Shown piece after piece: positions 25,061 through 64,000 of a DNA stretch of 64,000 nt. The number at the start of each line of letters is the position of its first letter. Position 1 is the first letter of the stretch. Origin of the DNA: Escherichia phage FL33; sequence record PP400788; one strand, 5' to 3'. The notes beneath the pieces are model-generated. The model saw only the letters and a list, made by a program, of their open reading frames with translations, was not told the DNA's origin and did no database searches. The position numbers and the translations under genes are program-made.

Positions 25061-25114
25061 TCCTCATGTTATGTCAGTAAGATTACTATAACACAACACG
25101 AGGGACTTGTAAAC
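25061..25114 (-). repeat. 54-bp exact direct repeat, copy 1 (early-promoter + RBS cassette)
   Basis: Identical to 40404-40457; minus strand reads GTTTAC-18 nt-TATAGT...GAGGA. Confidence 0.9.
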
Positions 25115-27171: not shown

Positions 27172-27174
27172 GAT

Positions 27175-29271
27175 TTATCCTTGAACGAACTTGTAAGGCA
27201 TGTTTGTAATATCTATGCAAGACGCAATAATTCCAAGAGATGATTCTACTTTCTGTTTAATATTTGATGAAACAAATGATGCAAAGTCAACTCTGTCTTC
27301 TATTTCAATATCACCTGTCATTGCAACTACTTCGCCGGTTTCCATTAAATGGTCTCCGTCATAGATTACCGATTCAGTGAGTTCTTCTGTGGTCATAACT
27401 TCAGCTTGAATGAGTTTTGTATTATTAGACGTGGTTCCGTCATTATTAGAAGCATCAGTTATTTTATTAACTTTAACCATCAATCCGCGCGGTAGAATAA
27501 CTTCAGCTTCTGTTGCTATTCCGAGACTTCCTGGATATACAACATTAACTTTATGAGCTCCATCAATTGCCCATCCTATTTGAACTTTAACGTATTCAGG
27601 ATTTTCTTTATACGCTCTTATTTCGTTTGGATTAATAGTTATTCCTTCTTCATTTTTATCAACCGTTAATTCGTTACGAGCTTCTGGTTCTAAAAGACCA
27701 ATACCAGCATGTGTAATTCCAAAACGCCCAAAAATGATAGGAGTTAAAGAAGTAGATACAAAATTTCTGAAATAGAACACTTTATTTTTAACTAGCGCTT
27801 CGTATATAGGAGCAGTCATACTTTGAGCACGATAAACTGTAATGCCTTCCGGTATGCGGTCACCATTTTCAAAAGCTGAATCTAAATTATTTATAGCAGA
27901 TTCAATTTCTTTTTCACTCATTACATCATATCGTTCTGGATTGTAACGACCTAAAAGAAGATTATTGATGTCAGTATATCCTGAACCACAATACTCTCTA
28001 ATGCCGCGCTTTTGTGATGGAGTATATTTAGAACCATCACGGGCAATAGTAATATCAATCATTGGACCTGCACCAATTCCAGAAAAACTATAAATCATTC
28101 TTTTGAGGAATTTAGTTTTTGCTGCGTTCCAGGAATTTTTAGTCATTTCTTCCCAGACTTCATCTGGCTGCCCTTTACGAGTTTTATTATGTTTATCAAG
28201 CCAATTATCTTTATATTCTTCAAAGAGTTGATTAACAGCTGCTGCGTATTTCTCTAAACATTTTATTGAAGTAGTTGGTTCATTTTTAATCGCATTAAGA
28301 ATTACATCTTTAATTTTTTCAGAAACTTCATTAACCTCACTTTTTGAAAAGAATTTATAGTCATAATGAAGTTCATTCGCAGTTCCTTCGGCAATAATTT
28401 TTGCTGCCTTAGTTTTAGAAGCTAATGAATTAATTCCAAGCTTCATTTCTTCTGCTTCGGGAATTAAAGGAGCGGTAGCAGGTTTATTGAAATTAGCTGC
28501 GGTAGATTCATACTTCTGGAATAATTCACTTTCAAATCTAGAAGATTCCAATGACTGACTTTGTGCAATTGCTCTACGGGAAATTTTAACTTTAACGATT
28601 ACAGCTTGGTCAGAACGTTTATCATTTTCTTGTGCAATAGATGCTGCAATTGCCTCATTTTTAGTTACTTGAGCTCCAGTATCTTTATTGATATAAACAT
28701 CACCGACCTTCGATTCAACTTTAGTAAAGAGCTCGGTACTAATTTCCGGAACCCCTGGAATGTCTTCTAGTGATACATTTTTGCGATGTATAAGAATATA
28801 TGCATACTTTTTATCATAATCCCAGAGTTCCTTAAGAAGGACGTATCTGCCACCTGAACGACTACGGATAAGTCTATCAGCAATAACTTGAATTTGTCTA
28901 GCTTGACCAGCAGTTTTAGACTTAAGAATACGGAGCATACAAGCATCAATTTTATACTGACGCATTGTTTGCATTGCAACAGTAAAAACCGAATTGATAT
29001 AATTAATTGGGCTTGGACCAAGACCTTTCAATTTAGCAATTGAACCTTTAGCAGTTAATGTAAAAGGAACAATATGCATCATTTTATCGCCCATCTTTAA
29101 ATCACGGTTAGTATCACCTCCAGATGTATAGGTACATAAACGAAAGCCTGGTTGCTCAATTGCGTCATCAACATGAACTGAAAAAATTTGCGGTATTTTC
29201 TTCTTTGGATTTAAGTTTGTAATCGGAAGAGTAGTATCTTCGTCAAATAATTCTGTAATAAGTTCCATCAT
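27175..29271 (-). CDS. alt: Alt ADP-ribosyltransferase (virion-packaged)
   Basis: 698 aa; MMELITELFDEDTTLPITNL...; motifs YRAQ, STS, EAEVILPRG; late promoter upstream; start may be the second Met (29268). Confidence 0.88.
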   Translation of the reverse strand: MMELITELFDEDTTLPITNLNPKKKIPQIFSVHVDDAIEQPGFRLCTYTSGGDTNRDLKMGDKMMHIVPFTLTAKGSIAKLKGLGPSPINYINSVFTVAMQTMRQYKIDACMLRILKSKTAGQARQIQVIADRLIRSRSGGRYVLLKELWDYDKKYAYILIHRKNVSLEDIPGVPEISTELFTKVESKVGDVYINKDTGAQVTKNEAIAASIAQENDKRSDQAVIVKVKISRRAIAQSQSLESSRFESELFQKYESTAANFNKPATAPLIPEAEEMKLGINSLASKTKAAKIIAEGTANELHYDYKFFSKSEVNEVSEKIKDVILNAIKNEPTTSIKCLEKYAAAVNQLFEEYKDNWLDKHNKTRKGQPDEVWEEMTKNSWNAAKTKFLKRMIYSFSGIGAGPMIDITIARDGSKYTPSQKRGIREYCGSGYTDINNLLLGRYNPERYDVMSEKEIESAINNLDSAFENGDRIPEGITVYRAQSMTAPIYEALVKNKVFYFRNFVSTSLTPIIFGRFGITHAGIGLLEPEARNELTVDKNEEGITINPNEIRAYKENPEYVKVQIGWAIDGAHKVNVVYPGSLGIATEAEVILPRGLMVKVNKITDASNNDGTTSNNTKLIQAEVMTTEELTESVIYDGDHLMETGEVVAMTGDIEIEDRVDFASFVSSNIKQKVESSLGIIASCIDITNMPYKFVQG

Positions 29272-42075: not shown

Positions 42076-43245
42076 TTAAAAGTATTTTTTAAAACTCATC
42101 ATAACTTTATCATCAACATCATTATCAATCTGTGCAACAAGGTAAGATGACAGTTCTACTTCTTGTGGCGCGGATTGAACATTATCAGAATTAAGATATT
42201 CACGAATCCAAGGATATGGATGTTTAACCGGAGCATCGGTAATTGGGCATGGAAGACCACACTGTTTCATACGAGATACAGTTAAGTAATCAATAAAGCT
42301 CCACATGCTATTTGTATTTAATCCAGGAACATCACCATCTTTAAATAAATGAACTGCCCAATCTTTTTCTTGGCGGTTAACTTCCATGAAAATATCAACT
42401 GCTTCTTGTTCACACTCTTGAGCAATTTTAACCCATTCATCGCCATCAGTGCCAAGTTGAAGTTGACGAATAATATATTGGGTGCCTTTAAGGTGAAGCT
42501 GCTCATCACGAGCAATGAACTTCATAATCTTGGCATTACCTTCCATGATTTCCATGTTTTTGTGGAAGTTAAATGTACACGCGAAAGATACGTAAAAACG
42601 AATAGCTTCCAGGGCGTTGATTACATGAAGGCAAAGATAAAGAGATTTCATTAGTGCTCGTTTAGTACATTCAACAACTTTGCCTAACTCTTCTTTACGA
42701 AATCCTTCTGATAAAATTCCTTCATAATCTTCAACCGCATTCTGATATTCACGAGTCTTAACTAGAACATCATCGTAATAGCGACCAATGGACTCGGCAC
42801 GTTTCATAATAGCTTTATCTAATACAATCTCATCAAATACCTTTGACGGATCAGTATAAAGATTTCGCATAATATGAGTGTATGAACGACTGTGAATAGT
42901 TTCACTAAAAGTCCATGTAGCAACCCATGTATCAAGACTTGGGTCTGAAATTAACGACATAAGTACAGCAGACGGCGCACGACCCTGAATGCTATCCAAA
43001 AGTGATTGATACTTCAAGTTATTAGTAAAAATATCTTGCTGATATTGAGGAAGCTTGTTAAATTGTGCAGCATCCATCATCAAGTTTACTTCTTCAGGAC
43101 GCCAGAAAAATGACAACTGCTTTTCGGTTAAATCTTCAAAAACTTTATGACGTTGAATATCATAACGCGCAATACCAAGACCTGAACCGAAGAACATAGG
43201 TTCTTTTAAAACATCAACTGGATTTGTATTAAAAACTGTGCTCAT
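42076..43245 (-). CDS. nrdB: ribonucleotide reductase small subunit NrdB (uninterrupted)
   Basis: 389-aa continuous ORF with class Ia R2 features; no intron. Confidence 0.95.
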   Translation of the reverse strand: MSTVFNTNPVDVLKEPMFFGSGLGIARYDIQRHKVFEDLTEKQLSFFWRPEEVNLMMDAAQFNKLPQYQQDIFTNNLKYQSLLDSIQGRAPSAVLMSLISDPSLDTWVATWTFSETIHSRSYTHIMRNLYTDPSKVFDEIVLDKAIMKRAESIGRYYDDVLVKTREYQNAVEDYEGILSEGFRKEELGKVVECTKRALMKSLYLCLHVINALEAIRFYVSFACTFNFHKNMEIMEGNAKIMKFIARDEQLHLKGTQYIIRQLQLGTDGDEWVKIAQECEQEAVDIFMEVNRQEKDWAVHLFKDGDVPGLNTNSMWSFIDYLTVSRMKQCGLPCPITDAPVKHPYPWIREYLNSDNVQSAPQEVELSSYLVAQIDNDVDDKVMMSFKKYF

Positions 43246-43296
43246 AAATTTTCCGCTTAGTTAATAGATAGTGACTCGTCCGTGAGTCAAATTATA

Positions 43297-44286
43297 TCAT
43301 AATTTACAGGATGAACAATCTTCAGCTTTTGGAGTTTCTATTTCATAATCATCAGTACCAGAACCATCACGGGTATTATGATAATAGAAATTTTTTCCGC
43401 CAAAATACCAAAAATACAAAAGGTCATCAATCATTACAGACATTGGAACCTTTCCTTTTGGAAAAATCTGCGGGTCATAATATGTATTCGCTGAAGCTGA
43501 TTGACATACCCATTTCAGCATAATAGCTACCTGCGTAAGATAAGGTTTATTACCTTTCTTAGCTAATTTCCATGTATAATCATAGAGGTCTATGTTATGT
43601 TCAATATTGGGCACGACTTGATTAAAGGAACCCTCTTTTGATTCTTTAACCGAGACTGGTCCACGTGGAGGCTCGATACCATTTGTACTGTTAGAAACTT
43701 GGGAAGATGACTCACATGGCATAAGTGCTGATAATGTGCTATTACGGATGCCAAAGAGCTTAAGGTCTTCCCGCAGCGACGACCAGTCACAAACGTATTT
43801 TGGAGCTGCGATTTGGTCAATCTTTTTATTGTACCAGTCGATAGGTAATTCGCCTCGAGACCAACGAGTGTCTGAATAATATTCGCAAGGTCCTTTTTCT
43901 TTGGCGAGCTTAATGGATGCTTTGATGAGTCCATACTGTAATCTCTCAAATAGTTCATGTGTTAAATCGTTAGCATCTTCATAAGAAGCAAAGTTACTTG
44001 CCAGCCAAGCTGCATAGTTAGTAACACCTACACCAAGATTTCGACGCTTTTTAGCTTTTTCTGCTTCAGGAACTGGATATCCTTGGTAATCCAAAAGATT
44101 ATCAAGAGCACGAACTTGAACTTCTGCTAATTCATTAATTTTATCTTGGTCTTGCCAATCGAAGTTATCTAATACGAATGCGCTAAGGGTACAAAGCCCC
44201 ACTTCTCCCTTGTTTTCAATAACTTCTATTGTAGTATACTCATCATCTTCGTAAAATTCATCTACAAATTCATAATCAATATTCAT
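43297..44286 (-). CDS. nrdA: ribonucleotide reductase large subunit NrdA, C-terminal piece
   Basis: 329 aa; own ATG; ...GEVGLCTLSAF...NSTLSALMP...GIEPPRG... to C-terminus CSSCKL, aligns with E. coli NrdA from ~residue 455. Confidence 0.9.
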   Translation of the reverse strand: MNIDYEFVDEFYEDDEYTTIEVIENKGEVGLCTLSAFVLDNFDWQDQDKINELAEVQVRALDNLLDYQGYPVPEAEKAKKRRNLGVGVTNYAAWLASNFASYEDANDLTHELFERLQYGLIKASIKLAKEKGPCEYYSDTRWSRGELPIDWYNKKIDQIAAPKYVCDWSSLREDLKLFGIRNSTLSALMPCESSSQVSNSTNGIEPPRGPVSVKESKEGSFNQVVPNIEHNIDLYDYTWKLAKKGNKPYLTQVAIMLKWVCQSASANTYYDPQIFPKGKVPMSVMIDDLLYFWYFGGKNFYYHNTRDGSGTDDYEIETPKAEDCSSCKL

Positions 44287-44986
44287 TTAATTCTTCTACC
44301 TTTTTTCTAGTAATTCCTAAAGCTTTAGATGCTCGATGTATTGATTGATATTCTATACCGTTTATTTTTACAGCAATTAAGTTATGGGGTTTTAATCCCT
44401 TTGGATGAGGTTTACTGACGAAAACTAAATTATCAAGCTCTGAAATCTTATCCAATTTCTTACACTTAAATCCTTTGTGATGCGACCGTTTACCTTTACA
44501 AACGGCTGACATAGTAGACGGATTTAAATTATGCTCTTTACAAAATTCGTTAAGACCTCGATGAATTTCCTCATGACCATCCGGAAATGTAAACACCCAA
44601 GATGTTTGAAGTCGAGATTTAACTTCTGGAGACATAGGAATACCTTTGTTCCAAGCTGGTTTGCCTTTATTATTTTCAGATACAGAAATAGCCAATTTTC
44701 TTCTAAGCCACCCATGACGTTTATTGGTGTTCTTTCGTTCAATATTATCTTCAGAATAAACACACATCATATTAGCAGCAAATATCAATTTATGATTATC
44801 TGGATATATCTTTACTAATAATTGATGAGCTATGTAATGCTCTTCTGGTGTCAAATCTACCAGGTTTTCCTTTGTATCAGAACCACCAATACACAGAGGT
44901 ATAATATGGTGTGATTCGGTATAGCAATCTAATTTTCTGTTCTTAGCTTTAGAAATAAGGTTATTGTAAATTTTAGAATAATCCAT
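44276..44986 (-). CDS. HNH homing endonuclease (MobE-like) inserted in nrdA
   Basis: 236 aa; HNH motif HHIIPLCIGGSDTKENLVDLTPEEHYIAH, NUMOD-like GKPAWNKG / KPHPKG repeats, C-terminal HTH; GAGG RBS upstream. Confidence 0.85.
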   Translation of the reverse strand: MDYSKIYNNLISKAKNRKLDCYTESHHIIPLCIGGSDTKENLVDLTPEEHYIAHQLLVKIYPDNHKLIFAANMMCVYSEDNIERKNTNKRHGWLRRKLAISVSENNKGKPAWNKGIPMSPEVKSRLQTSWVFTFPDGHEEIHRGLNEFCKEHNLNPSTMSAVCKGKRSHHKGFKCKKLDKISELDNLVFVSKPHPKGLKPHNLIAVKINGIEYQSIHRASKALGITRKKVEELNEY

Positions 44987-45031
44987 AACTTTTCCTCTTG
45001 TTATGGATTATTTATTAACGGTCTGTGTACT

Positions 45032-46465
45032 TTATTTGCTTTGAATTATACCGCCAGGATTAGCTTCATAAAACTTAGCTACATCCGACTTCTTAATTTT
45101 GATTAAACGGGTTTGTTGGCTATTCACATCATTTGTTGGAATAGCAATTTCACAGCACAAGTTACTCTGACGAATAGGTGCCTTTTCACGAATAAACGGA
45201 GTATAGTTATTCGTATTATCAATGAACTGCACATAAATCCTTGCTGTTCCTGAGCGTTCAGTCATGAGTAATTCAAATAGTTCACGGGCTTTAATACGCT
45301 TTTTACGAATATTAGGGTCTTTTTCTGCGGCTTCGTACAATTCACGGAAACGGTCTTGGTCTTTAAAATAAGAATAATAAAGCTCGCCACCCATTTCATG
45401 CGGACTGAACAAAGTAATGTAGTCGTTCTTTCCAAAACGTTCCATCATCAAATCATTCAGCTGGACGCCATAATCCATATGACGGATACGGTTTTCTTCT
45501 ACGCCTTTGTTATTTTTCAAAACGAGAAGATTTTCAACTTCCAAATGCCAAATAGGATAATAAGCAGTAGCAGCGCCGCCACGAATTCCGCCCTGTGAAC
45601 ATGATTTAACAGCAGTCTGAAAATGTTTCCAAAAAGGAATAACACCAGTATGACGCACTTCACCTGTGCCAATCTTAGAACCTTCGGCACGAATCATACC
45701 AACGTTAATACCAATTCCAGCGCGTTTGGAGATATATTCAACAATTGAAGCAGAAGCCTTATTGATAGACTTCAGCGAATCACCTGCTTCAATAACAACG
45801 CATGAACTAAATTGCCGAGTCGGAGTACGACAACCAGCCATAATAGGAGTTGGCAATGAAATCTGTCGAGTAGATACTGCTTCATAAAAACGAATAACAT
45901 GTTTTAATCTGTCAACAGGTTCATCTTGATGCAATGCCATTCCAATAGTCATAAATGCAAACTGTGGAGTTTCATAAATTTGACCAGTGGTTTTATCTTT
46001 AACGAGATATTTTTCTTTTAATTGCATCGCCCCGGAATAAGTAAATTCCATATCCCGCTCGTGCTTAATTTTTGATTCTAAAAATGTAATTTCTTCTGCA
46101 GAATATTTTGACAACAATTCAGGGTCATATTTACCTTCATTTACACAGTAAGAAATATGGTCAATAAATGAACGTGGTTCATACTGACCGTAAACATGCT
46201 TACGAAGAGCAAACATTAAACAGCGTGCAGCTACATATTGATAATCAGGCTCTTCAACTGAAATAGAATTCGCAGCAGCCTTAATTACAATGGTTTGAAT
46301 GTCATCAGTGGTCATTCCATCACGGAGATATGATTTAATATTTTCATATAATTCATAAGGATCTACAGATGTTCCTTCAGCTGCCCAAGATAAAACTTTA
46401 ATAATTTTTTGCGGGTCAAAGCTTTGAGAAACACCACTACTTTTGATAACATTAATTAATTGCAT
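45032..46465 (-). CDS. nrdA: ribonucleotide reductase large subunit NrdA, N-terminal piece
   Basis: 477 aa; ATP-cone N-terminus through ...PIRQSNLCCEIAIPTNDVNS, then a 28-aa non-homologous tail and stop. Confidence 0.9.
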   Translation of the reverse strand: MQLINVIKSSGVSQSFDPQKIIKVLSWAAEGTSVDPYELYENIKSYLRDGMTTDDIQTIVIKAAANSISVEEPDYQYVAARCLMFALRKHVYGQYEPRSFIDHISYCVNEGKYDPELLSKYSAEEITFLESKIKHERDMEFTYSGAMQLKEKYLVKDKTTGQIYETPQFAFMTIGMALHQDEPVDRLKHVIRFYEAVSTRQISLPTPIMAGCRTPTRQFSSCVVIEAGDSLKSINKASASIVEYISKRAGIGINVGMIRAEGSKIGTGEVRHTGVIPFWKHFQTAVKSCSQGGIRGGAATAYYPIWHLEVENLLVLKNNKGVEENRIRHMDYGVQLNDLMMERFGKNDYITLFSPHEMGGELYYSYFKDQDRFRELYEAAEKDPNIRKKRIKARELFELLMTERSGTARIYVQFIDNTNNYTPFIREKAPIRQSNLCCEIAIPTNDVNSQQTRLIKIKKSDVAKFYEANPGGIIQSK

Positions 46466-52162: not shown

Positions 52163-52261
52163 TTTTATTTCCTTTTTAATTTAATTAACAGTTGGTGCTA
52201 TGACGATGTATGACCTCATAGCTGGTCAGTGAGATAATTATAATCTATTTATAATAAGCAA

Positions 52262-54527: not shown

Positions 54528-57500
54528 ATGGCCGAGATTAAAAGAAAGTTCAGAGCAGAAGATGGTCTGGACGCAGGTGGTGATAAAATAATCAACGTAG
54601 CTTTAGCTGATCGTACCGTAGGAACTGACGGTGTTAACGTTGATTACTTAATTCAAGAAAACACAGTTCAACAATATGATCCAACTCGTGGATATTTAAA
54701 AGATTTTGTAATCATTTATGATAACCGCTTTTGGGCTGCTATAAATGATATTCCAAAACCAGCAGGAGCTTTTAATAGCGTACGATGGAGAGCGTTACGT
54801 ACTGATGCAAACTGGACAACTGTTTCATCAGGACCTTATCAATTAAAGTCAGGTGAATCAATTTCAGTTGATACTGCAGCTGGTAATGACATTACATTTA
54901 CTTTACCATCTTCTCCAATTGATGGTGATACTATCGTTCTCCAAGACATTGGAGGAAAACCTGGAGTTAACCAAGTTTTAATTACAGCTCCGGTACAAAG
55001 CATTGTAAATTTTAGAGGTCAGCAAGTACGATCAGTACTAATGACTCATCCAAAATCACAGATAGTTTTAATTTTTAGTAATCGTCTGTGGCAAATGTAT
55101 GTCGCTGATTATAGTAGAGAAGCTGTAGTTGTAACGCCTGCGAGTCTCTATCAGGCGCAATCAAACGATTTTATCGTACGTAGATTTACTTCTGCTGCAC
55201 CAATTAATGTTAAACTTCCAAGATTTGCTAATCATGGCGATATTATTAATTTCGTCGATTTAGATAAACTGAATCCACTTTATCATACAATTGTTACTAC
55301 ATACGATGAAACGACTTCAGTACAAGAAGTTGGAACTCATTCCATTGAAGGCCGTACATCGATTGACGGTTTCTTGATGTTTGATGATAATGAGAAATTG
55401 TGGAGATTGTTTGACGGGGATAGTAAAGCACGTTTACGCATTATAACGACTAATTCTAATATTCGTCCAAACGAAGAAGTTATGGTATTTGGTGCGAATA
55501 ACGGAACAACTCAAACAATTGAGCTTCAGCTTCCAACTAATATTTCTGTTGGTGATACTGTTAAAATTTCCATGAATTACATGAGAAAAGGACAAACAGT
55601 TAAAATCAAAGCTGCTGGTGAAGATAAAATTGCTTCTTCAGTTCAATTGCTGCAATTCCCAAAACGTTCAGAATATCCGCCTGAAACTAAATGGGTTACA
55701 GTTCAAGAATTAGTTTTTAATGGTGAAACTAATTATGTTCCAGTTTTGCAACTTGCTTATATAGAAGATTCTGATGGAAAATATTGGGTTGTGCAACAAA
55801 ATGTTCCAACTGTAGAAAGAGTTGATTCTTTAAATGATTCTACTAGAGCAAGATTAGGCGTAATTGCTTTAGCTACACAAGCTCAAGCTAACGTCGATTT
55901 AGAAAATTCTCCACAAAAAGAATTAGCAATTACTCCAGAAACATTAGCTAACCGTACTGCTACTGAAACTCGCAGAGGTATTGCAAGAATAGCAACTACT
56001 GCTCAAGTGAATCAGAACACCACATTCTCTTTTGCTGATGATATTATCATCACTCCTAAAAAGCTGAATGAAAGAACTGCTACAGAAACTCGCAGAGGTG
56101 TCGCAGAAATTGCTACGCAGCAAGAAACTAATGCAGGTACTGATGATACAACCATCATTACTCCTAAAAAGCTTCAAGCTCGTCAAGGTTCTGAATCATT
56201 ATCTGGTATTGTAACTTTTGTATCTACTGCAGGTGCTACTCCAGCTTCTAGCCGTGAATTAAATGGTACGAATGTTTATAATAAAAACACTAATAACTTA
56301 GTTGTTTCGCCAAAAGCTTTGGATCAGTATAAAGCTACTCCAACGCAACAAGGTGCAGTAATTTTAGCAGTTGAAAGTGAAGTAATTGCTGGACAAAGCC
56401 AAGAAGGATGGGCAAATGCGGTTGTAACGCCAGAAACGTTACATAAAAAGACATCAACTGATGGAAGAATTGGTTTAATTGAAATTGCTACGCAAAGTGA
56501 AGTTAATACAGGAACTGATTATACTCGTGCAGTCACTCCTAAAACTTTAAATGACCGTAGAGCAACTGAAAGTTTAAGTGGTATAGCTGAAATTGCTACA
56601 CAAGTTGAATTCGACGCAGGCGTCGACGATACTCGTATCTCTACACCATTAAAAATTAAAACCAGATTTAATAGTACTGATCGTACTTCTGTTGTTGCTC
56701 TATCTGGATTAGTTGAATCAGGAACTCTCTGGGACCATTATACCCTTAATATTCTTGAAGCAAATGAGACACAGCGTGGTACACTTCGTGTAGCTACACA
56801 GGTTGAAGCTGCTGCAGGAACATTAGATAATGTTTTAATAACTCCTAAAAAGCTTTTAGGTACTAAATCTACCGAATCGCAAGAAGGTGTTATTAAAGTT
56901 GCAACTCAGTCTGAAACTGTGACTGGAACGTCAGCAAATACTGCTGTATCTCCAAAAAATTTAAAATGGATTGTGCAGAGTGAACCTACTTGGGCAGCTA
57001 CTACTGCAATAAGAGGTTTTGTTAAAACTTCATCTGGTTCAATTACATTCGTTGGTAATGATACAGTAGGTTCTACCCAAGATTTAGATCTATACGAGAA
57101 AAATAGCTATGCGGTATCACCATATGAATTAAACCGCGTATTAGCAAATTATCTGCCGTTAAAAGCAAAAGCTGTAGATAGTAATTTATTGGATGGTCTA
57201 GATTCATCTCAGTTCATTCGTAGGGATATTGCACAGACGGTTAATGGTTCACTAACCTTAACCCAACAAACGAATCTGAGTGCCCCTCTTGTATCATCTA
57301 GTACTGCTACGTTTGGTGGTTCAGTTTCGGCAAATAGTGTACTAACTATTTCTAATACTGGAACAGCAACTCGTCTGATTTTTGAAAAAGGACCTCAGAC
57401 TGGAACGAACCCGGCTCAAACGATGACAGTCAGCGTGTGGGGGAATCAATTTAGTGGGGAATCAAACACAACACGTTCTACCGTATTTGAAGTTAGTGAT

Positions 57501-58397
57501 GAAACATCTTATCACTTTTATTCTCAACGCGATAAAGATGGCAATATAGCATTTAGCATTAATGGTACTGTAATGCCAATAAATGTGAATGCTTTAGGTT
57601 CTTTGAACGCGAACGGCGTTGCAACATTCGGTAGTTCAGTTACTGCTAATGGCGAATTTATCAGTAAATCGTCGAATGCTTTTAGAGCAATAAACGGTGA
57701 TTATGGATTCTTTATTCGTAATGATGCTGCTAACACCTATTTTATGCTTACTGCATCTGGTGATCAGACTGGTGGATTTAATGGATTACGTCCATTATCA
57801 ATTAATAATCAATCTGGTCAGGTTACAATTGGTGAAAGCTTAATCATTGCCAAAGGCGCTACTATAACTTCAGGTGGTTTAACTGTCAACTCGAGAATTC
57901 GTTCTCAAGGTACTAAAACCTCTGATTTATATACTCGTGCGCCAACATCTGATACTGTAGGATTCTGGTCAATCGATATTAATGATTCAGCCACTTATAA
58001 CCAGTTCCCGGGTTATTTTAAGATGGTTGAAAAGACTAATGAAGTGACTGGACTTCCATACTTAGAACGTGGCGAAGAAGTTAAATCTCCTGGTACATTG
58101 ACTCAGTTTGGTAACACACTCGATTCGCTTTATCAAGATTGGATTACTTATCCAACGACCCCAGAAGCGCGCACCACTCGCTGGACGCGCACATGGCAGA
58201 AAACCAAAAACTCTTGGTCAAGTTTTGTTCAGGTATTTGATGGGGGTAACCCTCCTCAGCCGTCTGATATCGGTGCTTTACCATCTGATAATGCTATAAT
58301 GGGGAATCTTACTATTCGTGATTTCTTACGAATTGGTAATGTTCGCATTATTCCTGACCCAGTGAATAAAACGGTTAAATTTGAATGGGTTGAATAA
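54528..58397 (+). CDS. 34: long tail fibre proximal subunit gp34
   Basis: 1289-aa ORF with repeated beta-rich segments; T4 gp34 length. Confidence 0.95.
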   Translation: MAEIKRKFRAEDGLDAGGDKIINVALADRTVGTDGVNVDYLIQENTVQQYDPTRGYLKDFVIIYDNRFWAAINDIPKPAGAFNSVRWRALRTDANWTTVSSGPYQLKSGESISVDTAAGNDITFTLPSSPIDGDTIVLQDIGGKPGVNQVLITAPVQSIVNFRGQQVRSVLMTHPKSQIVLIFSNRLWQMYVADYSREAVVVTPASLYQAQSNDFIVRRFTSAAPINVKLPRFANHGDIINFVDLDKLNPLYHTIVTTYDETTSVQEVGTHSIEGRTSIDGFLMFDDNEKLWRLFDGDSKARLRIITTNSNIRPNEEVMVFGANNGTTQTIELQLPTNISVGDTVKISMNYMRKGQTVKIKAAGEDKIASSVQLLQFPKRSEYPPETKWVTVQELVFNGETNYVPVLQLAYIEDSDGKYWVVQQNVPTVERVDSLNDSTRARLGVIALATQAQANVDLENSPQKELAITPETLANRTATETRRGIARIATTAQVNQNTTFSFADDIIITPKKLNERTATETRRGVAEIATQQETNAGTDDTTIITPKKLQARQGSESLSGIVTFVSTAGATPASSRELNGTNVYNKNTNNLVVSPKALDQYKATPTQQGAVILAVESEVIAGQSQEGWANAVVTPETLHKKTSTDGRIGLIEIATQSEVNTGTDYTRAVTPKTLNDRRATESLSGIAEIATQVEFDAGVDDTRISTPLKIKTRFNSTDRTSVVALSGLVESGTLWDHYTLNILEANETQRGTLRVATQVEAAAGTLDNVLITPKKLLGTKSTESQEGVIKVATQSETVTGTSANTAVSPKNLKWIVQSEPTWAATTAIRGFVKTSSGSITFVGNDTVGSTQDLDLYEKNSYAVSPYELNRVLANYLPLKAKAVDSNLLDGLDSSQFIRRDIAQTVNGSLTLTQQTNLSAPLVSSSTATFGGSVSANSVLTISNTGTATRLIFEKGPQTGTNPAQTMTVSVWGNQFSGESNTTRSTVFEVSDETSYHFYSQRDKDGNIAFSINGTVMPINVNALGSLNANGVATFGSSVTANGEFISKSSNAFRAINGDYGFFIRNDAANTYFMLTASGDQTGGFNGLRPLSINNQSGQVTIGESLIIAKGATITSGGLTVNSRIRSQGTKTSDLYTRAPTSDTVGFWSIDINDSATYNQFPGYFKMVEKTNEVTGLPYLERGEEVKSPGTLTQFGNTLDSLYQDWITYPTTPEARTTRWTRTWQKTKNSWSSFVQVFDGGNPPQPSDIGALPSDNAIMGNLTIRDFLRIGNVRIIPDPVNKTVKFEWVE

Positions 58398-58405
58398 GAG
58401 GTATT

Positions 58406-59521
58406 ATGGAAAAATTTATGGCAGAGTTTGGACAAGGATATGTCCAAACGCCATTTTTATCGGAAAGCAATTCAGTAAGATATAAAATAAGTATAGCGGG
58501 TTCTTGCCCGCTTTCTACCGCAGGACCATACGTTAAATTTCAAGATAATCCTGTAGGAAGTCAAACATTTAGTGCAGGTCTTCATTTAAGAGTTTTTGAC
58601 CCTTCCACGGGAGCATTGGTTGATAGTAAGTCATATGTTTTTTCTACTTCAAATGATACAACATCTGCTGCTTTTGTTAGTTTCATGAATTCTTTTTCAA
58701 GCAATAGACTTGTTGCCATATTAACTAGCGGAAAGGTTAATTTTCCTCCTGAAGTAGTATCTTGGTTAAGAACGGCAGGAACATCTGCTTTTCCATCTGA
58801 TTCTTTATTGTCAAGATTTGACGTATCATATGCTGCCTTTTACACTTCTTCTAAAAGAGCTATCGCACTAGAGCATGTTAAACTGAGTAACAGAAAAAGC
58901 ACAGATGACTATCAAACTATATTAGATGTAGTATTTGATAGTTTAGAAGATGTTGGAGCGACAGGATTTCCTAAAAGAACATATGAAAGCGTTGAGCAAT
59001 TTATGTCAGCTGTTGGTGGAACTAATAACGAAATTGCACGTCTACCTACAGCATCTGCAATAAGTAAACTCTCTGATTATAATTTAATTCCTGGAGATGT
59101 TCTTTATCTTAAAGCACAACTATATGCTGATGCTGATTTACTTGCTCTTGGAACTACAAATATATCTATCCGTTTTTATAATGCGTCGAATGGATATATT
59201 TCCTCGACACAAGCTGAGTTTACAGGACAGGCTGGATCTTGGGAATTAAAAGAAGATTATGTAGTTGTTCCTGAAAATGCAGTAGGATTTACGATATACG
59301 CACAGAGAACTGCACAAGCGGGTCAAGGCGGTATGAGAAATTTAAGCTTTTCTGAAGTGTCAAGAAATGGCGGCATTTCAAAACCTGCTGAGTTTGGCGT
59401 CAATGGTATTCGAGTTAATTATATCTGTGAATCTGCTTCACCTCCGGATATAATGGTACTTCCTACGCAAGCATCGTCTAAAACTGGTAAAGTGTTTGGA
59501 CAGGAATTTAGAGAAGTTTAA
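58406..59521 (+). CDS. 35: long tail fibre hinge protein gp35
   Basis: 371-aa ORF directly after 34. Confidence 0.9.
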   Translation: MEKFMAEFGQGYVQTPFLSESNSVRYKISIAGSCPLSTAGPYVKFQDNPVGSQTFSAGLHLRVFDPSTGALVDSKSYVFSTSNDTTSAAFVSFMNSFSSNRLVAILTSGKVNFPPEVVSWLRTAGTSAFPSDSLLSRFDVSYAAFYTSSKRAIALEHVKLSNRKSTDDYQTILDVVFDSLEDVGATGFPKRTYESVEQFMSAVGGTNNEIARLPTASAISKLSDYNLIPGDVLYLKAQLYADADLLALGTTNISIRFYNASNGYISSTQAEFTGQAGSWELKEDYVVVPENAVGFTIYAQRTAQAGQGGMRNLSFSEVSRNGGISKPAEFGVNGIRVNYICESASPPDIMVLPTQASSKTGKVFGQEFREV

Positions 59522-59583: not shown

Positions 59584-60240
59584 ATGGCTGATTTAAAAGT
59601 AGGTTCAACAACTGGAGGCTCTGTCATTTGGCATCAAGGAAATTTTCCATTGAATCCAGCCGGTGACGATGTACTCTATAAATCATTTAAAATATATTCA
59701 GAATATAATAAACCACAAGCTGCTGATAACGATTTCGTTTCTAAAGCTAATGGTGGTACATATTTAAAAAAAGTAATTTTTAATAAAGGAATGGCTGTTC
59801 CTGGTGCTGGGTCAGGTGACAACGGTATTTTTGCCGGTCCTGGTGATAATGCCACATATGATACTACAAATATGGATATTGTTTCATGGTATGGTATCGG
59901 CTTTAAATCATCACAAGGGGCAGCAGGTAGAACTGTAGTAATTAACACACGAAACGGAGATATTAGCTCAAAGGGTGTAATTGAAGCATCACAAATACGC
60001 GCAACTTCGTTATCACCAGTAAATAATTATGACCTTACGAGGAAAGATTATGTTGATGGAGCAATAAATATTGTTACAGCAAACGCAAACTCTAGGGTAT
60101 TACGCTCTGGAGACACTATGATAGGAAATTTAACTGCGCCAAACCTTTTTTCACAGAATCCTGCATCTCAACCCTCGCATGTTCCACGATTTGACCAAAT
60201 TGTTATTAAGGATTCTGTTCAAGATTTCGGCTATTATTAA
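59584..60240 (+). CDS. 36: long tail fibre distal connector gp36
   Basis: 218-aa ORF between 35 and 37. Confidence 0.9.
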   Translation: MADLKVGSTTGGSVIWHQGNFPLNPAGDDVLYKSFKIYSEYNKPQAADNDFVSKANGGTYLKKVIFNKGMAVPGAGSGDNGIFAGPGDNATYDTTNMDIVSWYGIGFKSSQGAAGRTVVINTRNGDISSKGVIEASQIRATSLSPVNNYDLTRKDYVDGAINIVTANANSRVLRSGDTMIGNLTAPNLFSQNPASQPSHVPRFDQIVIKDSVQDFGYY

Positions 60241-60248
60241 GAGGACTT

Positions 60249-63200
60249 ATGGCTACTTTAAAACAAATACAATTTAAAAGAAGCAAAACTGCAGGAGCAC
60301 GTCCTGCCGCTTCAGTATTAGCCGAAGGTGAATTGGCTATAAACTTAAAAGACCGTGTACTTTTTACTAAAGATGACCAAGGAAATATTATTGATCTGGG
60401 TTTTGCTAAAGGCGGTAGTATTGACGGGAATGTTATTCATACAGGCAATTATAACCAAACTGGCGATTATACTTTAAACGGTACATTCACCCAGACTGGT
60501 AATTTTAATTTAATCGGTATTGCTCGAGTAACTCGTGATATTATTGCTGCTGGGCAGATTATGACTGAAGGCGGAGAACTTATTACAAAAAGTTCAGGAA
60601 CGGCACACGTTCGTTTTCATGATTCCGCCGACCGTGAACGCGGTATTATTTTTTCTCCTGCTAATGACGGTTTAACTACACAAGTAATTAACATCAGAGT
60701 TCAAGATTACAAAGCCGGTTCAGAAAGCACTTTCGCTTTTAATGGAAATGGTTTGTTTTCTTCACCAGAAGTTTTTGGGTGGAAATCTGTATCAACTCCG
60801 GTAATTTATACCAATAAAGTTATCACCAATAAAAAAGTTAAAGATGATTATGACATCTATTCGATGGCAGACAATGTTCCATTGTCTGAAAGCACTACTG
60901 CTATTAATCATCTTCGTGTCATGCGTAATGCCGTTGGTTCTGGTATTTTCCATGAAGTTAAAGATAATGATGGAATAACTTGGTATGCAGGTGATGGACT
61001 TGACACCTATCTTTGGTCATTTACTTGGAGCGGCGGAATTAAATCAAGTCACTCAATTTCTATTGGTTTAACACCTGGTAATAAAGATTATTCAATATTA
61101 GGACCATCTAGTATTGCTTTAGGAGATAATGATACTGGATTTAAATGGCATCAAGATGGATATTATTTTAGCGTTAATAATGGAACAAAAACGTTTTTAT
61201 TTAGTCCTAGCGAAACAACTAGCCTAAGAAAATTTGTAGCTGGATATTCTACTAACGGAACCGATTTAACTACTCCTCCAACTGAAAACTATGCTCTCGC
61301 TACTGTCGTGACATATCACGATAATAACGCGTTTGGAGATGGTCAGACTCTTTTAGGATATTATCAAGGCGGTAACTATCATCATTATTTCCGCGGCAAG
61401 GGTACCACAAACATTAATACTCACGGCGGTTTGTTAGTTACTCCTGGTAATATTGACGTTATTGGTGGTTCTGTTAATATCGATGGTAGAAATAATGCTT
61501 CTACACTGATGTTTAGAGGTAACACAACTGGTAGTAGTTCAGTTGATAATATGACAATTTCCGTGTGGGGTAATACATTTACTATTCCTAGTGAAGGTAA
61601 TCGCAAAAATGTCATGGAAATTTCTGATGCAACTAGTTGGATGAGCTATATTCAAAGACTTACAACAGGTGAAGTAGAAATGAACGTTAACGGTTCATTT
61701 GAATCATCTGGTGTTACTGCTGGACATAGAGGAGTTCACACAACAGGTGAAATTTCATCTGGAGCAGTGAATGCGCTTCGCATTTGGAATGCAGATTATG
61801 GAGCCATTTTTAGACGTTCAGAAGGAAGTCTTCATATTATTCCGACTGCTTATGGTGAAGGCAAAAATGGTGATATCGGTCCACTTCGCCCGTTTAGTAT
61901 GGCTTTAGATACCGGTAAAGTTACTATTCCAGATTTACAATCAAGTTACAATACGTTCGCTGCGAACGGCTATATTAAATTTGTTGGTCATGGCGCTGGC
62001 GCTGGTGGTTATGACATTCAATATGTTCAAGCGGCTCCTATTTTTCAGGAAATCGATGATGATGCTGTAAGCAAATATTATCCTATTGTTAAACAGAAGT
62101 TTCTAAACGGTAAATCCGTTTGGTCTTTAGGTACTGAAATTAATTCAGGTACATTCGTGATACACCATATCAAAGAAGATGGAACACAGGGCCATGCATC
62201 AAGATTTAATGCTGATGGTACAGTTAACTTCCCGGATAACGTTCTGGTCGGCGGTGATATTAACATGAAAGGCTTGATGACTTTTGACGCCGGACGTTTA
62301 GGATCACGAGATTATTTTAAATTTAACCATTGGGGTGATAGCAATAACGCTCGTGATAACATCATCCAGTTAGAAGATAGTCAAGGCGCCCATTTTTCCA
62401 CTGAACGTACTTTAGCGACAGGTGCAATTAAAACTCGTTTCTTTGGCGAAACATTCACTGATGGTACATTATACCTAAATCAGATGCATAATAGCTCTGA
62501 ACGATTCTCTATCAGCAATTGGGGAAATTCAGAAGTTGGACGCGCGGCAGTATTGGAAGTCGGCGATTCAAAAGGTTATCACTTCTATGCTGAACGCAGG
62601 ACAGATAACAGTTTGATGTTTGATGTTGCTGGTTCTTTGACCGTACATGGACCTAGCGGAATAACCATCAAAAACTCAACTGGTGCTCGCCATATCTGGT
62701 TTAGAGATGATAGCGATGCAGAAAAGGCTGTTATCTGGGCTACAGATGAGGGTATTTTACATATACGAAATAATCATGGGGGTTCATTTAGTCATCACTT
62801 CCAGGGTGCAATGATTAAAGCGGGAGAGCAAGTTCCTTATAATAGTGAATACGCTCTTATCCGTGGTGATGTTTTTGGTGGTGCTTGGGATGACTGGCGC
62901 AACCGTCCTGCTGGTATTCTCTTAGATTGTCAGGATTCACATACCCGAGCATATTCAATTTGGAAAGCAACTCATTGGGGTGTTGATCATCTTGCGGCAA
63001 TGGGTGTTCATGCTGGCGGTGGTCAAGCTACCGTAATGATGCATATGAACAAAGGCGGCTGGTATTCATGGGCTGCAAATGGTGATTTCACATCTAGTGC
63101 GTCGGTTTACTGTAACGATGTTTATATTCGTTCCGACCGTCGTCTGAAAATTAACGTTGAAGACTACGAAGAAAATGCGGTAGATAAGGTAAATAAACTA

Positions 63201-63485
63201 AAAGTTAAAACCTACGATAAAGTTAAGTCTCTTTCTGACCGAGAAGTCATCGCACATGAGATTGGTATTATCGCGCAGGATTTACAAGAAATTTTACCGG
63301 AAGCTGTTAGCACTTCTAATGTCGGATCTCTTGATAACCCAGAAGAGATTTTAACAATTTCTAACTCTACAGTGAATGCTCTTTTAATTAAGGCTATTCA
63401 GGAAATGAGTGAAGAAATTAAAGAATTGAAAACGCCTCTCTTTACTAAAATTGCTCGCAAAATTAGTAAATATTTTAAATTCTAA
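60249..63485 (+). CDS. 37: long tail fibre distal subunit gp37 with C-terminal intramolecular-chaperone-like domain
   Basis: 1078-aa ORF; N-terminus MATLKQIQFKRSKTAGARPAASVLAEGELA...; C-terminal ~120 aa resembles autoproteolytic chaperone domains. Confidence 0.9.
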   Translation: MATLKQIQFKRSKTAGARPAASVLAEGELAINLKDRVLFTKDDQGNIIDLGFAKGGSIDGNVIHTGNYNQTGDYTLNGTFTQTGNFNLIGIARVTRDIIAAGQIMTEGGELITKSSGTAHVRFHDSADRERGIIFSPANDGLTTQVINIRVQDYKAGSESTFAFNGNGLFSSPEVFGWKSVSTPVIYTNKVITNKKVKDDYDIYSMADNVPLSESTTAINHLRVMRNAVGSGIFHEVKDNDGITWYAGDGLDTYLWSFTWSGGIKSSHSISIGLTPGNKDYSILGPSSIALGDNDTGFKWHQDGYYFSVNNGTKTFLFSPSETTSLRKFVAGYSTNGTDLTTPPTENYALATVVTYHDNNAFGDGQTLLGYYQGGNYHHYFRGKGTTNINTHGGLLVTPGNIDVIGGSVNIDGRNNASTLMFRGNTTGSSSVDNMTISVWGNTFTIPSEGNRKNVMEISDATSWMSYIQRLTTGEVEMNVNGSFESSGVTAGHRGVHTTGEISSGAVNALRIWNADYGAIFRRSEGSLHIIPTAYGEGKNGDIGPLRPFSMALDTGKVTIPDLQSSYNTFAANGYIKFVGHGAGAGGYDIQYVQAAPIFQEIDDDAVSKYYPIVKQKFLNGKSVWSLGTEINSGTFVIHHIKEDGTQGHASRFNADGTVNFPDNVLVGGDINMKGLMTFDAGRLGSRDYFKFNHWGDSNNARDNIIQLEDSQGAHFSTERTLATGAIKTRFFGETFTDGTLYLNQMHNSSERFSISNWGNSEVGRAAVLEVGDSKGYHFYAERRTDNSLMFDVAGSLTVHGPSGITIKNSTGARHIWFRDDSDAEKAVIWATDEGILHIRNNHGGSFSHHFQGAMIKAGEQVPYNSEYALIRGDVFGGAWDDWRNRPAGILLDCQDSHTRAYSIWKATHWGVDHLAAMGVHAGGGQATVMMHMNKGGWYSWAANGDFTSSASVYCNDVYIRSDRRLKINVEDYEENAVDKVNKLKVKTYDKVKSLSDREVIAHEIGIIAQDLQEILPEAVSTSNVGSLDNPEEILTISNSTVNALLIKAIQEMSEEIKELKTPLFTKIARKISKYFKF

Positions 63486-63492
63486 CAACAAG

Positions 63493-63510
63493 GGGGAAAT
63501 GCCCCCTTTG
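63493..63510 (+). terminator. hairpin after gene 37
   Basis: ggggg-aaatg-ccccc hairpin + TTT 8 nt after stop; must be leaky since gene 38 follows. Confidence 0.5.
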
Positions 63511-63521
63511 GAGTATAAATT

Positions 63522-64000
63522 ATGGCAGTAGTTGGAGTTCCTGGCTGGATTGGAAGTTCAGCCGTAAATGAAACGGGTCAGCGCTGGATGAGTCAAGCAG
63601 CTGGTCAATTAAGATTGGGTGTTCCTTGCTGGATGAGTCAATTTGCAGGTCGCTCAAGAGAAATTATTCATACACTTGGAGCAGACCATAACTTCAATGG
63701 TCAATGGTTCCGAGATAGATGTTTTGAGGCAGGTAGTGCACCTATAGTGTTTAATATCACTGGAGAATTAGTATCATATTCTAAAGATGTTCCTTTATTC
63801 TTTATGTATGGAGATACCCCTAACGAATATGTTACTTTGAATATTCATGGTGGTGTTCATATGTGGGGCCGAGGTGGTAACGGTACTGTAAACGGAAACC
63901 CAGGCACAAATGGTGGCGATGTAATCCAAAATGATATCGGCGGAAGACTTCGTATTTGGAACTATGGCGTTATTGCATCAGGCGGCGGCGGCGGTGGTGC
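63522..64000 (+). CDS. 38: gp38 receptor-recognising adhesin, T2-type (3' end outside window)
   Basis: Frame open to window end; [47 protein letters not shown]... ending in polyglycine run; GGAG RBS upstream. Confidence 0.85.

Follow-up and report, generated by a model that had tools for sequence, protein, structure and literature searches.

A T2/S16-style gp37-gp38 tip with a Mosigvirus-type specificity cassette in the long tail fibre of the Tequatrovirus FL34

Introduction

Does a phage with a largely T4-like genome also recognise its host in the manner of T4, or does its long tail fibre end in an adhesin of another kind? We addressed this question at the distal end of a 64,000-nucleotide stretch of DNA (the window), which is 100% identical to the genome of the Tequatrovirus FL34 (PP400789.1), a published coliphage (Lutz et al. 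2025, npj Viruses, PMC12032242). Over about 89% of its length, the window is collinear with T4 (~94% identity), which bears out the T4-like core proposed in a preliminary description of this DNA. We conclude with high confidence that the genes at its end form a T2/S16-style distal tip module in the long tail fibre of the OmpF-dependent phage FL34, with a gp38 cassette of Bas46/ESh27/RB69 type. What the genes are, how the tip is built and which receptor is used had already been published for this locus, and nothing in the tip itself is new. Our analysis adds the cassette breakpoints at base resolution, a predicted gp37 cleavage site and a warning on the deposited FL34 Gp38. Most T-even phages have their host range fixed by gp38 adhesins, which are prime targets in therapeutic phage engineering.

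Results

Gene 37 (60249-63485; this and all further features lie on the plus strand) is an open reading frame for the long tail fibre distal subunit of 1078 aa, matches PHROG 1699 ('long tail fiber protein distal subunit') and is labelled tail fiber protein (XAO17404.1) in the FL34 record. Its product contains SDRRLKINVEDYEENAVDKV, IGIIAQDLQEILPEAV and LLIKAIQEMSEEIKELK; these peptides and the one quoted from the next ORF in the preliminary description were all recovered in the frames given there. FL34 gp37 shares 86% identity with IME340 gp37 and, over residues 1-640 only, 34% with T4 gp37.

The gp37 C-terminus had been described as resembling the chaperone/autoproteolytic domains of other fibre proteins, and our searches agree. 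Using Pfam and phmmer, we assigned residues 962-1078 (63132-63482, 117 aa) to an intramolecular chaperone/autoproteolytic domain of the Peptidase_S74 family: PF13884 matches residues 962-1020 of 1078 with E=2.9e-14 and 53.5 bits (gathering cutoff 22 bits), covering profile positions 1-57 of 58. The module had been placed from 63096 onwards, and while that region does hold the chaperone, the domain proper starts at S962 (63132). It opens with an SDRRLK motif, in which S962 is followed five residues on by K967 (S-D-x-R-x-K, an S-x4-K arrangement), and has LLIKAIQEMSEEIKELK as its C-terminal helix. The phmmer matches, which were to S16 gp37 (6f45_A), to the tail fibre 8jov and to the autoprocessing domain of MYRF (7dc3), were all aligned on SD.R.K, with SDRRIK, SDERLK and (S)DLRAK, respectively, as partners of S962-D-R-R-L-K967. 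The role of such a Ser/Lys dyad is known from work on endoNF and MYRF.

Directly ahead of this domain lies DVYIR (residues 957-961, 63117-63131), which, judged from homologous sites, is predicted to be the last beta-strand of mature gp37 and, after cleavage, the docking surface for gp38. By its sequence, DVYIR^SDRRLK corresponds to the proven S16 autocleavage site, and T2 gp37 carries NVYIR SDIRLK at the matching position. FL34 gp37 is thus predicted to be cleaved at R961^S962, with release of the 117-aa chaperone after trimerisation. It is very unlikely that the S74-like domain is instead kept uncleaved in the mature fibre to aid receptor binding or the hold on gp38: the residue ahead of the scissile serine does differ (Arg in FL34, Ser in S16), but the SD.R.K motif and the domain score are intact, and T2 gp37, which shares the YIR^SD context, is reported in classical work to lose ~120 C-terminal residues. 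At the homologous site, the fPS phages have DVYIR^SDGRLKI and S16 has DLNVS^SDRRIKK (PMC7917993). According to the same paper, which cites earlier work, S16 gp37 sheds its last 113 residues by autocleavage, and the surface on which gp38 docks becomes exposed only once this chaperone has been released, a further point against retention in FL34.

Between genes 37 and 38, a short spacer (63491-63513) contains a small GC hairpin (63491-63507) followed by a Shine-Dalgarno sequence GGAG (63510-63513), and is 100% conserved in IME340, Bas46 and ESh27. We considered whether the hairpin might act as a terminator or in regulation and rejected this: the fold (dG -14.8 kcal/mol, z=-1.5) is not significant and no plus-strand terminator was called there. 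No family reached the gathering threshold when the entire window was scanned against Rfam, the nrdA interruption, a possible intron, included.

Gene 38 starts with the ATG at 63522 and extends past the window, so that 159 of its 259 codons (63522-64000) were available here; the other 100 come from the GenBank record of FL34, which is degraded at one end. Pfam, PDB matches and the FL34 annotation ('adhesin protein; Gp38') all identify its product as a T2-type adhesin. The 159 residues in the window match both Gp38_N (PF21721, E=7.7e-21, 74.3 bits) and GP38 (PF05268, E=8.5e-50, 170 bits), each with a cutoff of 25 bits, as well as PHROG 2056 ('tail fiber protein; host specificity', E=8e-82) and the solved structures of the PP01 gp38 RBD (9v85, E=3.7e-72) and S16 gp38 (6f45_D, E=3.7e-41); identity to T2 gp38 is 52%. 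The matches to Gp38_N, GP38 and PHROG 2056, like that to Peptidase_S74, go well beyond what chance would give. The gene also lies between gene 37 and the holin gene t, which is found at the opposite end of the FL34 record, an order shared by Bas46, RB69, ESh27, IME340 and T2. FL34 Gp38 had been recognised as an adhesin previously, via an HHpred match to 6F45_D (Lutz et al. 2025, PMC12032242).

The domain layout agrees with this assignment. Residues 1-42 (63522-63647) form the N-terminal attachment domain, as indicated by the Gp38_N match and by the tryptophan 'prongs' W9, W22 and W37, which are invariant in an alignment of FL34, PTE-Eco05, Bas46, RB69, IME340 and T2. In S16, the conserved gp38 tryptophans dock on trimeric gp37 (PMC6851490). 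A motif scan placed the first glycine-rich motif (GRM1, GRGGNG) at residues 116-121 (63867-63884), where G116-G121 is invariant in the alignment and aligns with GRGGTG of S16. It is followed by HVS1 of the classic scheme (residues 122-153, 63885-63980; HVS definitions in PMC3157838, PMC12032242 and PMC6851490), in which the alignment sets a 13-residue segment of FL34 type against GSN-SPGSAGGHC of IME340; in S16 structural terms, HVS1 comprises distal loop 1 and PGII helix 2, and then beta-helix strands. The GGGGGG run at the window edge (residues 154-159, 63981-63998), noted earlier, is indeed a glycine-rich motif, but the second (GRM2) and not the first; it is the equivalent of PGII helix 3 of S16 (151-GGGGGGGG-158; PMC6851490). 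Contrary to the statement that the hypervariable loops lie beyond the window, GRM1 and HVS1 are thus within it. GRM3-5, HVS2-4 and a conserved C-terminal motif (...GTIYGSWI) follow in the FL34 record, read on into its clean end, which brings the full protein to five GRMs and four HVSs. With these, and with no BLASTP match to T4 gp38, gene 38 shows neither of the two features named beforehand as contrary to a T2-type tip, a lack of glycine-rich motifs or a resemblance to the T4 chaperone.

The deposited FL34 Gp38 of 270 aa, XAO17403.1, ends differently (...FWVFPSRGATSTGCGPWGLKIITLRYKYW). We rejected this end as a novel tail, as it falls within the final ~243 nt of the linear record, which are an 80%-identical, G-biased and indel-bearing copy of the clean opposite record end; the degraded end also destroys the holin start codon. 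The true FL34 Gp38, reconstructed from the clean end, is 259 aa long, and the deposited C-terminus is artefactual. This spurious C-terminus could distort alignments, phylogenies or structure predictions built on FL34 Gp38. The HVS3 variant NASLTSPGS, of which PTE-Eco05 gp38 has only S202 in common, is present in a single copy only; it is probably not part of the record-end artefact, as the same octapeptide NASLTSPG occurs in PP01 gp38.

Two boundaries delimit the variable part of the fibre. The first bounds the variable fibre module upstream and falls ~55-76 codons inside gene 37 (60415-60477), where blastn HSPs show DNA homology to T4 (92-93%) ending at 60415 and that to T2 (89%) at 60477. 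This is consistent with the report that gp37 is conserved only in its ~60 N-terminal and ~120 C-terminal residues (Salem et al. 2021). A mosaic junction, as anticipated, is present, but the boundary with T4 lies 2.7 kb upstream of the coordinates given for it. The second and sharpest boundary, and the one relevant to host range, lies inside gene 38 (63768-63802, ~codons 83-94), where mismatch maps place the left recombination junction of a specificity cassette. Left of it, FL34 is ~100% identical to the Tequatrovirus IME340; right of it, identity to IME340 drops to ~50%, while that to the Mosigvirus phages Bas46 and ESh27 is 96-97%. Mismatches to IME340 number 0 at 63400-63737 and 2 up to 63767, and are dense from 63803 to ~64345 (extended coordinates); near-identity resumes at the holin ATG, which marks the right junction.

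Residues ~95-259 of gp38 (~545 bp) are hence a cassette of Bas46/ESh27/RB69 (Mosigvirus) type in a Tequatrovirus backbone. The pattern fits homologous recombination by way of gene 38's conserved 5' half and of the start of the holin gene. Fast evolution of HVSs is known (PMC3157838), and the identity switch could in principle reflect local diversifying selection on an inherited gene without recombination with a Mosigvirus-type allele. We regard this as highly improbable, since the divergent block is flanked on both sides by ~100% IME340 identity, takes in synonymous sites, conserved GRMs and, as far as the holin ATG, the non-coding spacer, and is 96-97% identical to alleles of another genus whose holin is just 70-77% identical. 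Moreover, experiments have documented an exchange of precisely this ~400-bp segment (PMC3157838). The term 'mosaic' overstates the rarity of the arrangement, because the T2-type tip is the majority state in T-even phages and T4 is the exception (PMC3157838, PMC6851490). Overall, the observation behind the preliminary description is confirmed and its interpretation is largely right, with corrections on the domain boundary, the junction, the variable region and the unusualness of the tip.

The receptor, whose prediction had been proposed, is already published as OmpF: FL34 plating falls by >3 logs on an MG1655 mutant deleted for ompF, and the phylogeny of gp38 follows the receptor (Lutz et al. 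2025, PMC12032242). Bas47 (PMC8594841) and fPS-2 and fPS-90 (PMC7917993) are likewise OmpF-dependent, and their adhesins have the same gp38 cassette type as FL34. In FL34, where the known dependence is genetic, from plating on knockouts, gp38 presumably contacts OmpF directly. Mutants in tolC under-express OmpF. A tolC effect of ~1 log on FL34 plating has been reported (PMC12032242); it may be indirect, via loss of OmpF, and is not required by the gp38-OmpF model. A long shot is that the FL34 adhesin is a functional intergeneric chimera whose HVS3 variant NASLTSPGS, otherwise found in the OmpC binder PP01, confers direct recognition of TolC as a second receptor. If so, the ~1-log effect would reflect TolC recognition by the gp38 adhesin and not indirect OmpF loss.

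Discussion

Our analysis suggests the following route to a functional tip. Gp37 would trimerise with the aid of its own C-terminal Peptidase_S74 chaperone of 117 residues, which would then cut itself off between R961 and S962, probably by the S962/K967 dyad, leaving a flat trimeric tip that ends in DVYIR strands. One molecule of gp38 would then dock on this tip via its N-terminal three-helix attachment domain, with W9, W22 and W37 entering three equivalent pockets on the gp37 trimer. The C-terminal part of gp38 is predicted to form a polyglycine-II 'sandwich' of glycine-rich motifs, and the variable loops between these motifs would bind the outer-membrane porin OmpF and so determine host range. 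That the ORF after gene 37 is instead a T4-type folding chaperone outside the virion, with the gp37 tip itself binding the receptor, is on sequence grounds already refuted and can be given practically no credence: the gene does occupy the position of T4 gene 38, and several GenBank relatives are (mis)labelled 'long tail fiber assembly chaperone/catalyst', but BLASTP found no match between FL34 gp38 and T4 gp38 (183 aa) at E<=1e-3, the His-rich needle at the C-terminus of T4 gp37 has no counterpart in FL34 gp37, which ends in the S74 chaperone, and gp38 matches the GP38 adhesin profile (E=8.5e-50) and solved adhesins.

Comparison with known systems places this T2-type tip among well-described relatives. 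The gp37/Gp38 sequence of FL34 itself is identical to the window, and only the deposited Gp38 differs (270 aa versus 259 aa as reconstructed). In the S16 tip (PDB 6F45; Dunne et al. 2018), likewise, the gp37 beta-helix ends in an S74 chaperone that cleaves itself off, as presumed for FL34, and gp38 is a monomer made up of a Trp-prong attachment domain, a beta-helix and a PGII sandwich. In contrast to FL34, S16 targets Salmonella OmpC, its cleavage context is DLNVS^S and not DVYIR^S, its gp37 shaft is unrelated and its gp38 is only moderately similar in sequence (E=3.7e-41). T2 (AP018813.1) shares with FL34 the gene order 34-35-36-37-38-t, the gp37 cleavage context followed by the chaperone, and all gp38 GRMs, but has a gp37 of 1341 aa with another shaft, other HVSs and FadL as its receptor (PMC8594841).

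The closest specificity domains, nearly the same as that of FL34, are found in the Mosigvirus phages ChristianSchoenbein (Bas46), AlbertHofmann (Bas47), ESh27 and RB69 and in the Tequatrovirus members fPS-2 and fPS-90, with gp38 amino acid identities to FL34 of 98% for Bas46, 89% for RB69 and, over residues 1-209, 96.7% for fPS-2. FL34 gp38 is set apart from these Mosigvirus/fPS-type adhesins by E82 and the HVS3 NASLTSPGS, and in the Mosigvirus holin and the region of the gp37 tip (62850-63150) identity to FL34 is only 67-77%. T4, finally, agrees with FL34 in gene order and, at 92-93% DNA identity, through genes 34-36 and into gene 37 as far as codon ~55, but differs where the tip begins: its gp37 has its own receptor-binding needle and lacks the intramolecular chaperone, and its gp38 is an unrelated chaperone of 183 aa.

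Results

The last 10 kb of the window carry a canonical T-even long-tail-fibre operon on the + strand, comprising gene 34 (54528-58397), gene 35 (58406-59521), gene 36 (59584-60240), gene 37 (60249-63485; distal subunit gp37, 1078 aa) and, after a 36-nt spacer, the ORF of gene 38 (tip adhesin gp38), which starts with the ATG at 63522 and continues past the window end. The peptides quoted in the preliminary description were all found in the frames of gene 37 and the following ORF, and its GGGGGG run near the window edge corresponds to residues 154-159 of the latter (63981-63998). By megablast, the region is 100% identical, in opposite orientation, to Escherichia phage FL34 (PP400789.1; pig faeces, Denmark; host MG1655), in which the two genes are labelled ‘tail fiber protein’ and ‘adhesin protein; Gp38’; window position 64000 equals position 391 of that record. 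In the spacer, a small GC hairpin (AGGGGG-AAATG-CCCCCT) follows the gene 37 stop and precedes the Shine-Dalgarno GGAG of gene 38, the two together spanning 63491-63513. The hairpin is 100% kept in the Tequatrovirus IME340 and in the Mosigvirus phages Bas46 (ChristianSchoenbein) and ESh27; its folding energy (z=-1.5) falls short of significance.

The gp37 C-terminus had been described as chaperone-like or autoproteolytic, and this reading is supported by Pfam, phmmer and motif matches. Peptidase_S74 (‘chaperone of endosialidase’) covers residues 962-1020 (53.5 bits, cutoff 22), residues ~914-1061 align with the S16 gp37 construct of 6F45, and the S-D-x-R-x-K motif aligns with the tail fibre 8jov and the MYRF autoprocessing domain 7dc3 (phmmer, PDB sequences). 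In S16, the last 113 residues form an intramolecular chaperone (IMC) that autocleaves at DLNVS^SDRRIKK once trimerised, exposing the gp38 docking surface, and this site has been aligned with DVYIR^SDGRLKI of the fPS phages (Salem et al. 2021, PMC7917993). FL34 gp37 reads DVYIR^SDRRLKI and T2 gp37 NVYIR SDIRLK, whereas T4 gp37 ends in a His-rich needle and lacks the S74 domain. We infer cleavage at R961^S962, where S962 (codon at 63132) directly follows NDVYIR and is the first of 117 aa before the stop; an IMC that stays uncleaved is improbable given these site likenesses. Upstream of the IMC, residues ~868-967 (62850-63150) share merely 67-77% identity with Bas46 and ESh27, and the IMC and gp38 N-terminus share 90-100%. 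The docking strand, IMC and gp38 N-terminus appear to travel as a conserved block apart from the shaft, as was noted in fPS phages (PMC7917993).

The 159 gp38 residues inside the window match Gp38_N (residues 1-42, E=7.7e-21) and GP38 (residues 47-159, E=8.5e-50) in Pfam as well as PHROG 2056 (E=8e-82). Completed from the FL34 record, gp38 matches solved structures, namely the receptor-binding domain of PP01 gp38 (9v85, E=3.7e-72; PMC12892980) and S16 gp38 (6f45_D, E=3.7e-41), and it is 52% identical to T2 gp38. W9, W22 and W37 are unchanged in every adhesin compared; they correspond to the three tryptophan prongs by which S16 gp38 docks on the gp37 trimer (PMC6851490). That gene 38 encodes a T4-type chaperone can be dismissed, as BLASTP found no similarity to T4 gp38.

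Following published definitions of glycine-rich motifs (GRM), hypervariable segments (HVS) and polyglycine-II (PGII) helices (PMC3157838, PMC12032242, PMC6851490), GRM1 (GRGGNG, residues 116-121, 63867-63884), HVS1 of the classic scheme (residues 122-153, including distal loop 1 and PGII helix 2 in S16 terms) and GRM2 (the glycine run, counterpart of S16 helix 3) lie inside the window. The hypervariable loops had been placed beyond its edge, which holds for HVS2-4. The downstream part of gene 38 has GRM3-5, HVS2-4 and a conserved motif last, so that it neither lacks glycine-rich motifs nor resembles the T4 chaperone. In HVS3, around residues 197-202 (outside the window), FL34 reads NASLTSPGS, versus NASYDAPGG in Bas46, ESh27 and RB69. 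OmpC-binding PP01 gp38 (9v85) has the identical octapeptide NASLTSPG, suggesting that a small patch within HVS3 was exchanged naturally.

Collinear alignment to T4 98,015-156,708 takes in about 89% of the window (mean identity ~94%), and 60416-64000 is the largest block without T4 homology. DNA homology ends at 60415 for T4 and 60477 for T2, about 55-76 codons into gene 37. Both the T4-like core and the T2-like tip are supported; however, the boundary between T4-like and non-T4-like sequence is at about 60415, early in gene 37, not within 63096-64000. A second junction, inside gene 38, is sharper and more recent-looking. Compared with IME340, there are no mismatches from 63400 to 63737 and two up to 63767, then dense mismatches (~50%) from 63803 to ~64345 (window numbering continued through FL34), and 97-100% identity again from the holin ATG on. 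The pattern is reversed for Bas46 and ESh27 (cassette 96-97%, holin gene 70-77%). Thus, a ~545-bp cassette of Bas46/RB69 type (gp38 residues ~95-259 plus spacer) sits in a Tequatrovirus backbone; in-situ diversification instead of recombination is an unlikely source of the identity switch.

The opposite ends of the linear FL34 record share a ~240-nt overlap, in which they are just 80% identical. The high-coordinate copy matches all relatives, whereas the low-coordinate copy (PP400789.1 1-~243, beyond the window end) carries G-biased substitutions (24/~50 to G) and indels, has lost the gene 38 stop codon and has ATA for the holin ATG. Since this end is degraded, the last ~40 residues of the deposited Gp38 (XAO17403.1, 270 aa) are artefactual. 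The reconstructed Gp38 has 259 aa, ends in GTIYGSWI and is 98% identical to Bas46 gp38 (differences E82N, L197Y, T198D, S199A, S202G). The degradation does not reach into the window, whose final differences from Bas46 (63983, 63989, 63992) all fall on third-codon positions. The false C-terminus may, however, bear on published alignments and on how many Gp38 variants are counted as ‘unique’ (FL33 versus FL34).

Elsewhere, nrdA (43297-46465, - strand), uninterrupted in T4, comprises ORFs of 477 aa (45032-46465) and 329 aa (43297-44286), the barrel domain being interrupted by an ORF for a 236-aa I-HmuI/NUMOD-like homing endonuclease (44276-44986). This arrangement is annotated in >30 related phages (fPS-2, fPS-90, FL23, FL44 and others), and Rfam returned nothing there as to intron versus genes-in-pieces. 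Two tandem full-length Alt-like ADP-ribosyltransferase ORFs (25114-29271, - strand; 685 and 698 aa), both matching ADPrib_exo_Tox in Pfam, contrast with one alt gene plus alt.-1/-2/-3 remnants in T4; 25134-26487 has no T4 DNA match. The T4 nrdB group I intron with I-TevIII, nrdB.1 plus mobE, and segG are missing (absence sites 42578/42579, 43245-43301 and 52225-52261). Through the td region, intron included, the alignment with T4 is contiguous. As a gathering-threshold Rfam scan of the whole window gave zero matches despite this collinearity, the Rfam model evidently misses group I introns that contain an ORF.

Discussion

The preliminary description stands in its observation and its reading, with the junction position and the in-window content corrected. 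We consider it very likely that gp37 would trimerise with the help of its own IMC, which would then autocleave at R961^S962; the exposed DVYIR tip would take one gp38 via three Trp prongs, and variable loops displayed by the gp38 PGII sandwich would bind OmpF.

The receptor, which the preliminary description proposed to determine, is answered by published experiment. Lutz et al. 2025 classed FL34 as Tequatrovirus, confirmed its Gp38 as an adhesin via HHpred to 6F45_D and, with MG1655 deletion mutants, found that FL31, FL33 and FL34 need OmpF, with a minor tolC effect (PMC12032242). Independent support comes from phages whose specificity domain is almost that of FL34: AlbertHofmann/Bas47 (gp38 86% identical) depends on OmpF, with complementation (PMC8594841), and fPS-2 and fPS-90 (96.7% over residues 1-209) use OmpF plus LPS (PMC7917993).

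The fibre tip feature is therefore already known, receptor included. Cassette exchange is likewise a known phenomenon, since Trojet et al. 2011 demonstrated that exchanging exactly this segment moves receptor specificity and that crossovers favour conserved flanks (PMC3157838). Finding a T2 tip on a T4 core is also unremarkable, because most T-even phages have the T2-type tip and it is T4 that stands apart (PMC3157838; Dunne and Leiman, PMC6851490).
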